Assembly (NCBI GenBank): GCA_947496465.1
Contig: CANMCX010000002.1
Coordinates: 400,137-424,136 of the forward strand
Source of the DNA: Marinifilum sediminis
GTDB taxonomy: Bacteria > Bacteroidota > Bacteroidia > Bacteroidales > Marinifilaceae
DNA: 24,000 bases
Direction of reading: 5' to 3'
Shown here: in pieces, positions 3,507-11,989 of the stretch
How the letters are laid out: every line of letters begins with the position of its first letter
How positions within the stretch are numbered: the first letter of the stretch is position 1
Notes under the pieces: generated by a model
What the model was told of the DNA's origin: nothing
Databases searched by the model: none
The model's input: the letters and a program-made list of their open reading frames with translations, nothing else
Position numbers and translations under genes: made by a program

Positions 3507-4916
3507 ATGAACAAAAAGCTCTTCGCAAATAAGATCATTTTCTTGCTTGCAATTTTGTCAAGTATTCTATTTTCAAGTTGTGCTACATACTATGCTCAAA
3601 ATGAAGCGTTCAATCAGTATTTTCTTAATGGAGATATTGCGAATGCCGAAAAAACATTGGATGGTGATGCTAAAAATCAGCGTAAAAAGAATAAATCCTT
3701 ATATCTTTTAAATAAAGGTACACTAGCATGGATGCAACAAGATTACGAAAGAGCAACTGCTTATTTTAACGAAGCCGATTTATTTATTGAAGATCAGAGA
3801 AAAAACATCGCTAACGAAGCCCTAGCATTACTAACAAATCCTGCGACAAAACCATATGTTCCAGAAGATTTCGAAAATGTAATGCTTAACTTTTATAAGG
3901 CTTTAAGCTTTTTGGAAATGGGCAAAAGTCAGGAAGCTTTGGTCGAGTGTAGAAGAGTGAATGAAAAACTATATGCACTTAATGATAAGTATCCGAAAAA
4001 CTATAAAAACAGATATAGTGACGATGCATTTGCTCACACCATAATGGGCTTAATTTATGATTCTACTGGCGATTCAAATAATGCATTTATCGCTTACAGG
4101 AATGCATATAAAATTTACGAAGGTAATTACACCAAAAATTTTAACACACCCGCTCCTAGACAACTTAAAGATGATCTTCTGCGTACAGCATATCAAACTG
4201 GATTGAATCAGGAGTATGAATTTTACAAAAATAAATTTGGATTTGATTTTACTAAAAGAGAAAAAAATCAAGGTGATTTAATAATGATATGGATGACAGG
4301 ATTAGGACCTGTTAAAGACGAATGGAGTATTAATTTTAGTGCTCTCAATGGTCGCGATGGTTATTTAACACTTGTAAACGAAGGTGAAGGTGCTAACTTT
4401 CCTTTTTATGTAGGTGATATGGATAGCAGAACTCGAAATTCATTTAGCGATCTAGATTTTGTGAGAGTAGCCTTTCCTAAGTATCAGGAAAGAATGCCTT
4501 TTTACAATTCAGCTTCAATACAAGTAGATTCTGTTCATTACAATTTAGATAAAGCGCAAGACTTAAATGCTATTGCTTTTAAATCTCTAAAAGATAGAAT
4601 GCTTAGAGAAATGGCGAATTCATTACTCAGATTAGCTACTAAAAAAGCTTTGGAAAATTATGCTCGCAGCAAAGATGATAATATTGGTGCTATTATAGGA
4701 ATTTTTAATGCCGTTACAGAAAAAGCTGATACAAGAAACTGGCAAACCCTACCTCATTCTATTCACTACACGAGATTGCATTTAAAAGAAGGAGAAAACA
4801 ATATTAATTTAAAAGTGCAGTCTCCAAATGGAACATCAAATAATCAAAATTTGAAGTTTACGATAAAGGCAGGACAAACCAGCTTTTTTAGCTTTCACAG
4901 TATGGAATCAAATTAG
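3507..4916 (+). CDS. large lipoprotein with N-terminal TPR-like repeats, function unknown
   Basis: The in-frame ATG at 3507 gives MNKKLFANKIIFLLAILSSILFSSC, a signal peptide ending in Cys. TPR-like helices include YLLNKGTLAWMQQDYERATAYFNEA, FYKALSFLEMGKSQEALVECRRV and GLIYDSTGDSNNAFIAYRNAYKIY. It starts 54 nt after the LpoB-like gene, so the two are likely a pair. Confidence 0.6.
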   Translation: MNKKLFANKIIFLLAILSSILFSSCATYYAQNEAFNQYFLNGDIANAEKTLDGDAKNQRKKNKSLYLLNKGTLAWMQQDYERATAYFNEADLFIEDQRKNIANEALALLTNPATKPYVPEDFENVMLNFYKALSFLEMGKSQEALVECRRVNEKLYALNDKYPKNYKNRYSDDAFAHTIMGLIYDSTGDSNNAFIAYRNAYKIYEGNYTKNFNTPAPRQLKDDLLRTAYQTGLNQEYEFYKNKFGFDFTKREKNQGDLIMIWMTGLGPVKDEWSINFSALNGRDGYLTLVNEGEGANFPFYVGDMDSRTRNSFSDLDFVRVAFPKYQERMPFYNSASIQVDSVHYNLDKAQDLNAIAFKSLKDRMLREMANSLLRLATKKALENYARSKDDNIGAIIGIFNAVTEKADTRNWQTLPHSIHYTRLHLKEGENNINLKVQSPNGTSNNQNLKFTIKAGQTSFFSFHSMESN

Positions 4917-5462
4917 AACGCTGTTTTTTGATAATGTAAACCGTACCACGTCCTTATCAACATTAGCAATATATTCACAACTTAAGGTCAAATCCTCATT
5001 AAAAAATCGCTGACATCCCATAAACATCCCGATAGCCAAATCAACAAAAACCTTTTTTGACTCATAAGAAATTATAAAAGTACTGTCGTCAATTCTTTCT
5101 GCCTTAAAACCTTTCAATCCTTTATGCGGAAAACGTTCCTGCATTTTTACATGAATAAAATAATCTATTTGTTCTAAAAATTCGAACACATCACTATTCC
5201 CAGCAAATTCTGGTCGGTACAAAATTACCAGTCTACTAAATAAATATTCACCAAAATTTTTAGATAAATCTGATTTTGAAAGTCGCGTTTCCTCACTTAA
5301 TAATGTAACCAGCTCGTTGAATTGCTTGTAAGAATAATCTTGCATAGAATCATAAACTCCATTATTCCCTGCTCCCAAAAGAGAAACAACTTTCTCAACT
5401 GTTTCACATCCAAATTCACTTTCCGACATCTCTAAAATTTCTGTAAAAAAAATCCCTTTCAT
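4908..5462 (-). CDS. stand-alone H-NOX (heme NO/O2-binding, HNOB) domain protein
   Basis: The MKGIFFTEILEMSESEFG start is typical of H-NOX. His104 (DYFIHVKMQ) and Y133-E-S135-K-K137 align with H102 and Y131-x-S133-x-R135 of Thermoanaerobacter H-NOX as I recall it, with the same 29-residue His-to-Tyr spacing. At 184 aa it is a single domain. Confidence 0.75.
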   Translation of the reverse strand: MKGIFFTEILEMSESEFGCETVEKVVSLLGAGNNGVYDSMQDYSYKQFNELVTLLSEETRLSKSDLSKNFGEYLFSRLVILYRPEFAGNSDVFEFLEQIDYFIHVKMQERFPHKGLKGFKAERIDDSTFIISYESKKVFVDLAIGMFMGCQRFFNEDLTLSCEYIANVDKDVVRFTLSKNSVLI

Positions 5463-8745: not shown

Positions 8746-8819
8746 GGACGCGTAGCATAACTGGATAGTGCACCACGTTACGGCCGTGGAGGTTGGGGGT
8801 TCGACTCCCTCCGTGTTCA
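8746..8819 (+). tRNA. tRNA-Arg (anticodon ACG), copy 1
   Basis: Hand-folded cloverleaf of 74 nt. Acceptor GGACGCG/CGTGTTC (two G-U pairs), D arm GCAT-AACTGGATA-GTGC, anticodon arm CCACG-TTACGGC-CGTGG (ACG at 8780-8782), variable loop AGGTT, T arm GGGGG-TTCGACT-CCCTC, discriminator A. CCA is not encoded. Confidence 0.93.
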
Positions 8820-8870
8820 CATTAAAAATCTTGCTTAGATTAAAGGGGCTTCCACCCTCTAAGTTAAGAG

Positions 8871-8930: not shown

Positions 8931-9004
8931 GGACGCGTAGCATAACTGGATAGTGCACCTCGTTACGGCCGAGGAGGTTGGGGGTTCGACTCCCTCCGTG
9001 TTCA
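8931..9004 (+). tRNA. tRNA-Arg (anticodon ACG), copy 2
   Basis: Same cloverleaf as copy 1. The only differences are A to T at 8960 and T to A at 8972, which pair with each other in the anticodon stem (CCTCG...CGAGG). Confidence 0.93.
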
Positions 9005-9056
9005 CATTAAAGAGCTTGTTTAGACTATAGGGGCTTCCACCCTTCTAAGCTAAGAA

Positions 9057-9167: not shown

Positions 9168-9821
9168 TTATTTAACGATTACACCTAAAACTTCCAATTT
9201 TTGGCGCTCATTGCCTTCGTAAAATAAATCGAGACAGGCACGCAAATCGGAACAGTAGGCCATAAATTCGCCATAGTATTCTTGTTTCTTAGTGGTGGCT
9301 TGTTGAGCTTCACCATCTTCTTTCTCGGCATTCAGTTTTAATTCATCTACGGCAATCAAATCTCCTTGAAGAGCTGTTATTACCTCAGGAGTTAAAGCAA
9401 CCAATGTCAATTTTTCCTGAATTGCTTCATGAGTAATAATTGCATTTACAGTATCATCAGCCAATGCTTTCCACTCAGGATATGCAGTTGGAACTTCCCT
9501 GTTTAAACGCAGAAGAGTTGACAATTCAAGATCATTTTTAAAGAAATAACGACCCACCTTACGAATATGAATCAACTTATCGTGAATCGTGGTATAAGAA
9601 TCGTTAAATACACGAGTTGCCTCGCTCGATTCAATACGTTCGGTATTTTGAACCTCGAAAGCAATTTTGGTTTTGGTATAAAGGGTTTTTCCCAATTCGA
9701 TACGCTCTTCGGGATAGATAAGTGCTATCCGTTCTTTAATAGAGGCATCATTGGAAACTCCATAAACCAATAGTCTTCCTTTTTCGAGTTCTTTCAAATA
9801 ACTTTCTTTCATCTGTTTCAA
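9168..9821 (-). CDS. hypothetical protein, 217 aa, acidic and probably all-helical, no family recognised
   Basis: Clean ATG-initiated ORF, with only a short shadow ORF on the opposite strand. It has its own downstream terminator. There is no signal peptide, TM segment or catalytic motif that I can identify. Confidence 0.6.
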   Translation of the reverse strand: MKQMKESYLKELEKGRLLVYGVSNDASIKERIALIYPEERIELGKTLYTKTKIAFEVQNTERIESSEATRVFNDSYTTIHDKLIHIRKVGRYFFKNDLELSTLLRLNREVPTAYPEWKALADDTVNAIITHEAIQEKLTLVALTPEVITALQGDLIAVDELKLNAEKEDGEAQQATTKKQEYYGEFMAYCSDLRACLDLFYEGNERQKLEVLGVIVK

Positions 9822-10150
9822 TTTTTAAATGTAAGATTAGATGAAACTAAGCTTGATTCAATAATTCTTCACGAATGTGAATTAATAATTACTGAATCAT
9901 GGATGTTTCATAAGATTAAATTTTAATTGTTCTTTTTGAAATGTAAATTGTAGTAATTACTTCGTTTTAATAAGGAAAGCAAGAATAAGTAACTGCCGAA
10001 ATAGACCCTATATTGCTGCAATTGATAGAGATACAAAACAGAATACTTGCCCTACATATTAGAGGATGAATTGATTACAGTAATCAATTCTTAATTATCT
10101 ATAATAAAATTAGAAGAGTATTATGTGAAAGTCAACAAGTGTACTGTACT

Positions 10151-10480
10151 TTTTTTGTGATATTCATCACCTTTTTTAACAAAACACAGTCTGCCATTCA
10201 TTTTTTTGTGACTTTCTGTCATTTTTGAGCAATTCCCCCAGCTTTTTAGCGATTCCCCTCACTTTTCACTGACTTTCCGTCGCTTTGGAATGATTTTCCC
10301 ATACTTTGGGTGAGTTCCCCTCACTTAGGATGCATTTTATTACATTTGGGTTGTATTTTCCTTAGGCTTGGGGCTTCTCCCCTTACTTTGGAGGATTTTA
10401 TATTAGTGTGGCGATTCTGTATTTTGCTTAAGTGGGGTTTTGGATTGGTTTGAAGGGTTGAAATTAGGAATGATGAGACA
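10151..10480. repeat. array of about 12-15 degenerate direct repeats of about 21 bp (T-tract + short dyad GYGA-N5-7-TCAC with pyrimidine-rich centre)
   Basis: Units read on the plus strand begin at 10151, 10201, 10222, 10243, 10263, 10284, 10305, 10325, 10345, 10368, 10387 and 10407, with lengths of 19-23 bp. Examples are TTTTTAGCGATTCCCCTCAC, TTTGGGTGAGTTCCCCTCAC, TTTTTGAGCAATTCCCCCAGC and TTTTTTTGTGACTTTCTGTCA. No ORF of 60 aa or more lies on either strand. Confidence 0.65.
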
Positions 10481-10492
10481 TTAATAGACTTT

Positions 10493-10528
10493 GGAAAAAG
10501 AAAAGGCTGAGCTCTCGCTCAGCCTTTC
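10493..10528 (-). terminator. intrinsic terminator of the KAP NTPase gene
   Basis: Stem AAAGGCTGAGC (10502-10512) / GCTCAGCCTTT (10517-10527) with loop TCTC. On the minus strand it is followed by TTTTCTTTTT. It lies 13 nt past the stop codon at 10541-10543. Confidence 0.75.
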
Positions 10529-10540
10529 AGGAACTTATAG

Positions 10541-11989
10541 TTATATTAATTCATCCATTATTGAAAATCCTTGGATACATAGAGCGTATCTATTTACCTC
10601 TTTTCTAAACAAACTCAGTTCCTTTTTACCAATAATTACTTTCTGATCTTTAATTTCATATTTAAATTCCAAATTATCAACCATAATAGAATAATTACCA
10701 TCCATTCTCGAAAAATTATTTCTATAACCCAATACCTCTATCAACTCAACTAAATGAAATTCATCCAAACGACTAGCAAATCTTGTCTCCGCAAGGGATT
10801 TCATCATTTTTAGAGAATTAAACAACATTTCATTATTTCCATCATATAAAAAAAGTAACACTTTATAACTCCATCCAATCGATTTTTCTTCAATCCTGTA
10901 GTAGCAATCTGATTTTACCCTTAAAGACTCACTTAGTGAAATTGGAAAATTATAAAGTTTCAATAATTGTCGAATATTCAAAAGTCCATTTTGTAACAAA
11001 TCATATATTATAAGATCTATAAACTTAGTAAAATGCTCATTACAATTTGCGCAAAATGAATTCATAGCTATGAATTTCTGAGTCAGTTCTTTTAAATGAT
11101 TATGCCAATTATAAATATTGTTAAAATAAAATATTTCAACAGATCGAAACTTATCGATGTAGCCCTTAAAATCAACATTATTACCGAATTTATTAATGAA
11201 GATTTTTTCAATATTATAAAGATCACAGACCAATATTATTTTAGAGAACCCAAATTTATTATCCAACTCAATTGATTCAAATTGCTGTTGGTCGAAATGA
11301 GCTGAGAACACATTTAACAAACGAAAAATATGATTAGGGTCAACGCGATCTAAATCATCGATAATGAGAACTGTTTCTTTTTTCCCTTTATTTTCATCGT
11401 TCAGCTTATGAATTTCCTCTGAAATAAAATAAGATAATGAATCCATTTCGTAAATAGAGCCTTTGCACGATTGAAAATTCCTAGAATATTCCTCTAGTGT
11501 AGCGAACATTTCATTTTCTGGCTGCTTAAAAGACGAATTCAAATTAGAACAAAATTTTATTATACTCTCAAATGAACTTACAGCCTTACCCAGTTTGGGG
11601 ATCCCTTTAAGGATATCTAAAGCTAAGTTTGCACCATCATTCATTAAATAATACTGAGAGGCCAAAATTTTATCCTTCAAATTATATTCTGGAGTGGTAA
11701 AATCAATAGATGGGATTAATTCAGTTAGAATATCAAACTTTAATAGTTCGAATATATCCTTGTTATTGGCTACTTGATAATTTACAGGATAAAGGTGAAA
11801 TACTTGATATTTATCTTCTTTCCCCTTAAAGAATTCTTTCAAAAAAGTAGTCTTGCCTGTACCGAAGGGAGCTGAGAATAAAATCCTATTATTCTCTGGT
11901 ATATCAAGATGTTTATCAAATTGTTCTAAAGGTTTGGCTATTGGAACAATCAAATCATTTTTTTCTTTTTCTAATGTCTCTGAGGTCAT
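10541..11989 (-). CDS. KAP-family P-loop NTPase, soluble (no TM insert seen)
   Basis: Walker A in the KAP context RILFSAPFGTGKTTFLKEFF. Walker B as the KAP-typical ETVLIIDDLDRVDPNHIFRLLNVF. The later block YIDKFRSVEIFYF resembles the KAP motif that follows. Length is 482 aa, and the gene is visibly more AT-rich than its neighbours. Confidence 0.82.
   Translation of the reverse strand: MTSETLEKEKNDLIVPIAKPLEQFDKHLDIPENNRILFSAPFGTGKTTFLKEFFKGKEDKYQVFHLYPVNYQVANNKDIFELLKFDILTELIPSIDFTTPEYNLKDKILASQYYLMNDGANLALDILKGIPKLGKAVSSFESIIKFCSNLNSSFKQPENEMFATLEEYSRNFQSCKGSIYEMDSLSYFISEEIHKLNDENKGKKETVLIIDDLDRVDPNHIFRLLNVFSAHFDQQQFESIELDNKFGFSKIILVCDLYNIEKIFINKFGNNVDFKGYIDKFRSVEIFYFNNIYNWHNHLKELTQKFIAMNSFCANCNEHFTKFIDLIIYDLLQNGLLNIRQLLKLYNFPISLSESLRVKSDCYYRIEEKSIGWSYKVLLFLYDGNNEMLFNSLKMMKSLAETRFASRLDEFHLVELIEVLGYRNNFSRMDGNYSIMVDNLEFKYEIKDQKVIIGKKELSLFRKEVNRYALCIQGFSIMDELI

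Follow-up and report, generated by a model that had tools for sequence, protein, structure and literature searches.

What is the role of a gene-free stretch of DNA that is filled with short, degenerate repeats and lies between a KAP NTPase gene and a small uncharacterized gene? We addressed this question for a locus in a 24-kb stretch of DNA (hereafter the window) that matches Marinifilum sp. N1E240. A sequence-only reading had described a phased array of T-tracts and small dyads with a repeat length of about 21 bp and had offered three non-exclusive interpretations, i.e., tandem regulator sites at the DNA level, a string of small RNA hairpins resembling CsrB-type protein sponges, or a decaying minisatellite. 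We find that the array is real and that such an array recurs upstream of the same gene family in 29 of 30 loci examined across Bacteroidota. It looks like an undescribed DNA-level control region rather than an RNA element or a junk repeat.

A periodic array between a terminator and a promoter-like site

The KAP NTPase gene is encoded on the minus strand (10541–11989), and no open reading frame of 60 or more amino acids lies between its stop at 10541 and the next gene downstream. The start of this downstream gene, previously read as a 217-aa frame, is the ATG at 9812, which gives a protein of 214 aa (9168–9812, minus strand) and a gap of 728 bp. Autocorrelation of positions 10141–10480 showed identities of 0.41, 0.43, 0.43, 0.455, and 0.464 at lags of 20, 21, 41, 61, and 62, respectively, compared to 0.288 expected (z = 5.1, 6.2, 5.7, 6.5, and 6.7), while the largest z in any of 500 dinucleotide-preserving shuffles was 3.9. 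Segmentation by dynamic programming resolved about 16 head-to-tail units of 19–24 bp between 10160 and 10489 (mean 20.6 bp), and a super-period of three units (62 bp) is marked by TTCCCCTCACTT at 10253, 10315, and 10377 on the plus strand. Tandem Repeats Finder (TRF) recognized only 2.4 copies with default settings but periods of 21 and 62 bp with lenient ones, at a match between units of about 60%.

The seven dyads listed in the sequence-only reading are all present. Dyads with 4-bp arms are about twice as frequent as in shuffled sequences (12 versus 5.1 ± 2.5, p about 0.01), whereas those with 5-bp arms are not enriched, and only three of the seven hold up in orthologues. The unit is better described on the minus strand, i.e., in gene orientation, as an A-tract followed by G(Y), two nucleotides, a GGGGAA-type core, and a variable tail of 5–6 nt. 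The best-conserved part of the array (10202–10386) comprises nine units, including the GGGGAA units and two GAC-N5-GTC units, while the distal third (about 10387–10489) contains degenerate C/A-rich units. The motif AAAGYNNGGGGAA occurs five times in the 24-kb window, always inside the array. The dyad unit TGAC-AGAAA-GTCA at 10209–10221 is kept in 89% of orthologue cells and has a second, weaker copy (GAC..GTC) at 10271–10281, and variants of it recur in arrays of distant lineages as CGACAATTTGTCG, TGACTCTTTGTCA, and CGACACAAAGTCA.

On its distal side, the array is bounded by a rho-independent terminator (10501–10528, minus strand) with a 12-bp stem (GAAAGGCTGAGC / GCTCAGCCTTTT) and a T-run that closes the KAP NTPase gene, and the same GGCTGAGC stem bounds the array in relatives whose upstream genes are different. 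On its proximal side lies the palindrome GTGAT-N4-ATCAC (10157–10170), which is of FNR/CRP type and has its TGA-N8-TCA core kept in 9 of 9 close (clade-A) orthologues, followed by an A7 run (10150–10156) and a promoter-like site (10100–10135, minus strand). The latter reads TTG (10135–10133)-N20-TAATTTTA (10112–10105), which appears to be of the Bacteroidetes -33/-7 type, and it is overlapped by a sigma-70-type match (TTCACA-17-TATTAT). The block TTTG-N20-TAATTTYATTATGG is conserved in relatives, and the palindrome would be centered about 65 bp upstream of the start inferred from it. Between this inferred start and the ATG, we infer a long 5' leader of about 285 nt (9813–10099) that holds a perfect palindrome with 11-bp arms at 10068–10090 and a stable hairpin module at about 9841–9911.

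Linkage of the array to the PQLLE gene family

The downstream gene encodes a full-length member of the PQLLE family (NCBIfam NF052641; 169 bits, cut-off 80), while searches of the protein against Pfam, PHROGs, and PADLOC gave nothing. Eight independent metagenome contigs of the same strain from different samples carry a spacer of identical length with 0–2 substitutions, and we therefore turned to homologues. In Ancylomarina, Labilibaculum, and uncultured Marinifilaceae, the gene always has a long gene-free upstream region that contains the same array, unit for unit, when read in gene orientation. A scan of species-representative genomes added Marinifilum breve, more Labilibaculum, Carboxylicivirga, Saccharicrinis, and Marinilabiliaceae, whereas a metagenome scan added only six loci. 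All 23 close and intermediate loci show peaks at 21, 41–42, and 62–63 bp (z of 5.6–17).

An exhaustive profile search showed that the family is large, with 1,174 clusters at 50% identity in public data, and that distant members end in ...PQLLE.LGI.VRS. Among these, loci at 23–30% protein identity (here numbered L044, L045, L047 from Chryseobacterium, L048, and L049) and at 48–51% identity (L041/L043) also have an upstream array with a 21-bp period, while one distant locus (L046) has a period of 15 bp, which is not an integral number of helical turns, and one (L042) shows no array. Overall, 29 of 30 loci carry such an array, from 86% down to 23% protein identity (Marinifilaceae, Carboxylicivirga, Saccharicrinis, Chryseobacterium, and MAGs), usually with a period of 20–21 bp and often with a 62–63 bp super-period. 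By contrast, the genes beyond it vary and include a group II intron-type reverse transcriptase (RVT_1 + GIIM) plus AAA_15/RloB, restriction-modification, CBASS SMODS/SLATT, an ECF sigma factor, CRISPR, or, as here, a KAP NTPase. The array is therefore a companion of the PQLLE gene, which is the only gene always linked to it, and the KAP NTPase is an interchangeable neighbor, a point that the sequence-only reading had not seen.

Notably, the units are individually orthologous and under purifying selection. In-register identity of the array core to the window is 0.66–0.81 but drops to 0.40–0.57 when the partner is shifted by one to three units, while identity at synonymous sites of the gene is 0.43–0.60. 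Across nine orthologues, the A-tract with its G and the GGGGAA are 90–100% conserved, whereas the tail is only about 45% conserved. Length differences between orthologues are mostly whole units of about 20, 22, or 40 bp, though such indels can arise from unequal crossing-over without any selection for phase. The unit start AAA(A/R)GTGA recurs from Marinilabiliales to Chryseobacterium and the MAGs, as AAAGTGA, GAAATGA, or ATTGTGA, but the core differs by lineage (GGGGAA, TTCCC, CTGCAGA, GTACTT, or GGTAGC), which could also reflect concerted evolution. Two paralogous loci in one genome even carry GGGGAA and its inverse TTCCC behind the same A-tract polarity (L021 and L026 of Labilibaculum euxinus A4; L024 and L028 of Labilibaculum sp. 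K2S).

A DNA-level control region and its rivals

We favor a reading in which the array is a cis-regulatory region of the PQLLE gene, with abutting units of about 20.7 bp (two helical turns) each presenting an asymmetric site on one face of the helix, i.e., an A-tract plus GYR (AAAAGTGA-like, resembling a CRP/FNR half-site) followed by a G/C-rich core. A few units are true palindromes (GTGAC-N5-GTCAC-like, besides the GTGAT-N4-ATCAC site next to the promoter-like site), and the upstream terminator shields the block from read-through. We infer that a sequence-specific DNA-binding protein loads cooperatively along the array to form a large, probably wrapped, nucleoprotein complex that sets transcription from the promoter immediately downstream. 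Periodicity, linkage, selection, and placement are directly supported by our data, but protein binding, its cooperativity, and the regulatory output are inferred from sequence alone without measurements of transcription or binding, so that our confidence in this mechanism is moderate (about 0.55). No regulator gene is consistently linked to the array. A Crp/Fnr-type regulator is our first guess for the binder. AAATGTGA would be the CRP half-site and 20–22 bp the size of one Crp/Fnr dimer site, and one reading is an array of abutting, mostly half-degenerate Crp/Fnr-like sites with an orientation-free G/C center. The PQLLE protein itself is a weaker candidate. It is acidic (pI 5.1; family median 5.4) and has no recognizable DNA-binding fold. 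Its confident AF2 model (pLDDT 91.6) is an internally duplicated all-helical rod with two 56-residue helices, for which Foldseek found no PDB match better than E = 0.15.

Among the alternatives, a neutral, decaying minisatellite is rejected despite the degeneracy of the units, because the array is conserved in position and register across genera and across the family, is more conserved than synonymous sites, and shows no copy-number variation in the eight metagenome contigs. A transcribed element, e.g., part of a purine-rich 5' leader or a separate sponge or scaffold RNA, is doubtful. The A-run sits on the sense strand of the gene in most lineages examined even where the core is inverted (it is absent or replaced in L032/L033 and L048), which could point to a strand-specific role of a transcript, 4-bp dyads are enriched, and no transcription data exclude a promoter between 10489 and 10501. 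However, neither strand folds better than shuffles (z of -0.57 and -0.91), and consensus folding of nine orthologues gave only -5.2 kcal/mol (sense) and -3.2 kcal/mol (antisense) with essentially no covariation. The seven dyads projected onto orthologues gave 72% paired cells compared to 68.6% in shuffles, with four of them kept in only 47–75% of cells and the three that hold (TGAC..GTCA at 89%, GTGAT..ATCAC at 89%, and GAC..GTC at 81%) kept mostly by invariance, as expected for palindromic protein sites, while the right arms of most dyads fall on the least constrained positions. Searches of Rfam 15 with the window at gathering score and with 9700–10700 at E ≤ 10 gave only two tRNAs and noise. 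In addition, the array sits downstream of a strong terminator and upstream of the only conserved promoter-like block, and a hairpin string would not need a strictly preserved period of 20.7–21 bp. We also found no complementarity of unit cores to the leader or coding sequence and no consistent open frame. PQxxE heptads read from the Chryseobacterium array resemble the family motif but do not generalize, and a 74-aa gene call on the array of L047 is spurious. The idea that each unit is a Bacteroidetes promoter or a mini-terminator on the T-rich strand was rejected by spacing (14 or 35 nt instead of 19–21) and by weak, non-conserved stems.

Structural DNA acting without a protein, e.g., as an extended UP element, a supercoiling or temperature sensor, or an insulator between a variable gene island and the PQLLE promoter, seems unlikely as well. 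It would fit the recurrence of A-tracts every 20.67 bp (2 × 10.33), the G-run in either orientation (GGGGAA or TTCCCC), and the position at the border of variable defense-type genes. A wedge model, the parameters of which may not be exact, predicted more curvature than average (end-to-end/contour 0.68 versus 0.84 ± 0.09 for the window and 0.87 ± 0.075 for shuffles), but this is only at the 7th percentile of the window and several coding segments score higher. Moreover, some lineages lack A-tracts (L032/L033: CCCGAG...) or G-runs (L030, L033, L046) yet keep the array, and non-tract positions such as the G(Y) and the palindromic units are conserved. An iteron- or centromere-like loading site for a segregation, replication, or nucleoid-anchoring complex involving the PQLLE protein is similarly improbable. 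The order of tandem repeats, palindromes, promoter, and one small gene would fit, as would the joint divergence of repeats and protein, the differences between paralogues in one genome, and the length of the helices (about 84 Å at an assumed 1.5 Å per residue, comparable to about 71 Å for a 21-bp step at 3.4 Å per bp). However, no Rep, ParA, ParM, or TubZ partner is conserved. A further reading, of low probability, is a self-contained, phylum-wide module in which an enhancer-like homotypic cluster of 8–16 phased sites is read by a co-evolving factor, possibly a filament of the rod-shaped PQLLE protein with a partner laid along the DNA in steps of about 21 bp, to build a wrapped nucleoprotein that acts as a boundary or anchor at the edge of defense-gene islands as well as a switch for the gene.

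Comparison with known systems

We found no paper that names the PQLLE family and no Rfam family or paper that describes such an array. Its presence as a 150–350-bp phased block in front of the promoter of nearly every examined member gives the family its first functional handle, and it may be one of the largest conserved bacterial cis-regulatory arrays tied to a single gene. It offers a natural system to study cooperative, helically phased site arrays, their co-evolution with a binder, and possibly the organization of defense-island borders in Bacteroidota.

Like CsrB/RsmZ-type sponge RNAs, the array has many short repeats with GGA or GGGGAA motifs that can be drawn as hairpin loops, but there is no evidence of structure, covariation, or an Rfam match. 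Phased A-tract curved DNA and UP-element-like upstream activating regions share the A-tracts in helical phase upstream of a promoter, though curvature may be moderate only, non-tract bases are conserved, and some lineages lack A-tracts. The iterons of theta-replicating plasmids (pSC101, F oriS, R6K gamma, RK2 oriV) probably likewise have tandem direct repeats of 17–22 bp spaced about two helical turns apart, a lineage-specific repeat sequence, and partial palindromes that overlap or precede the promoter of an adjacent small gene. However, the gene adjacent to our array is not a Rep-type winged-helix protein, no TTATCCACA-like DnaA box (up to one mismatch) was found between 9822 and 10540, there are 8–16 units rather than 3–7, and the contigs are chromosomal (up to 5 Mb), with no homologues in a tblastn search of 72,556 plasmids and 50,697 phages with a family member. 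Type II/III partition centromeres bound by ParR or TubR (R1 parC; pSK41 parC with 20-bp repeats; tubC) and the omega-protein heptad arrays of pSM19035 likewise seem to have a tandem repeat block just upstream of a promoter that is coated cooperatively into a superhelical nucleoprotein and also serves as operator, yet here there is no linked motor NTPase or ribbon-helix-helix adaptor but a single, monocistronic gene of unknown function in a phylum-wide, chromosomal family. Finally, compared to CRP/FNR-family operators (22-bp AAATGTGA-N6-TCACATTT; TTGAT-N4-ATCAA), the conserved GTGAT-N4-ATCAC fits the FNR-type spacing, the left end of the unit (AAAAGTGA) resembles a CRP half-site, and the 6-nt center tolerates inversion, but most units lack the second half-site, no Crp/Fnr gene is linked to the array, and known CRP/FNR promoters have one to three sites rather than 16 abutting ones.

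Elements between the array and the start codon, and genes on the other flanks

On the minus strand of the window, a stable hairpin module of about 70 nt (ATGAAAC...GTTTCAT; about 9841-9911) lies just before the start codon of the PQLLE gene, with a folding energy of -20.8 kcal/mol and a z of -3.8. Related modules occur once to three times in the leaders of Labilibaculum loci (e.g., TRF reports a period of 96 with 2.3 copies in the Labilibaculum locus L022) but not in M. breve. However, the consensus structure of this module is modest with little covariation, and it has no Rfam match. In addition, a perfect palindrome, GAATTGATTAC-a-GTAATCAATTC, is found at 10068-10090 just downstream of the inferred transcription start. 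This palindrome is not conserved outside the genus and could be an operator or a 5' stem-loop.

Directly downstream of the PQLLE gene, two identical-anticodon tRNA-Arg(ACG) genes sit in tandem on the plus strand (8746-8820 and 8931-9005), while they are absent at this position in Labilibaculum, where a GH2 gene sits instead. A few genes away, an H-NOX (haem-NO-binding) domain protein is encoded at 4908-5462 next to esterase, YceI and AraC-family genes, though no connection of this gene to the array was found.

PQLLE paralogues and a gene call across the Chryseobacterium array

Two Labilibaculum genomes each encode two PQLLE paralogues, i.e., Labilibaculum euxinus A4 (loci L021 and L026) and Labilibaculum sp. 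K2S (loci L024 and L028), with about 80% and about 58% identity to the window protein. Each of these paralogues has its own array, and the core motif is in opposite orientation. In the Chryseobacterium locus L047, a 74-aa ORF is called across the array (2701-2925 of that locus). Its heptad 'xPQxxEM' translation is a by-product of the 21-bp period, and the gene call is thus probably spurious.

Variable gene content and a recurring terminator beyond the array

The same terminator stem (AAGGCTGAGC-loop-GCTCAGCCTT plus a T-run, with variable loops) that is found at 10501-10528 of the window also lies upstream of the arrays in L011, L013, L019, L020 and L024, where it ends different upstream genes in different genera. 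It therefore seems to belong to the conserved PQLLE module or to mark the junction where cargo is exchanged. In L020, this stem is split by an insertion of about 140 bp with a duplicated CGCTCAG(C/T)CTTTTTCTTTC.

The side of the array away from the PQLLE gene is a variable slot that is often filled with defence-type genes, as seen in the window and at loci L011-L015, L019, L044, L045 and L048 of the PQLLE family. In the window, this slot holds a KAP-family NTPase (10541-11989), while elsewhere it holds AAA_15/RloB beside a group II intron-type reverse transcriptase, restriction-modification, CBASS (SMODS + SLATT), a CRISPR array with cas2, a TPR/STAND-like protein, or an RM S-subunit with RhuM. 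The CRISPR array of L044 (positions about 1700-2600 of that locus) lies after cas2 and runs up to the PQLLE array with a 65-bp period and the 36-nt repeat GTTGTGGTTTGATGTAATTTCAGGATCATAAGAAAC, so that two unrelated repeat arrays sit side by side. The PQLLE locus looks like a border of a defence-island hotspot.
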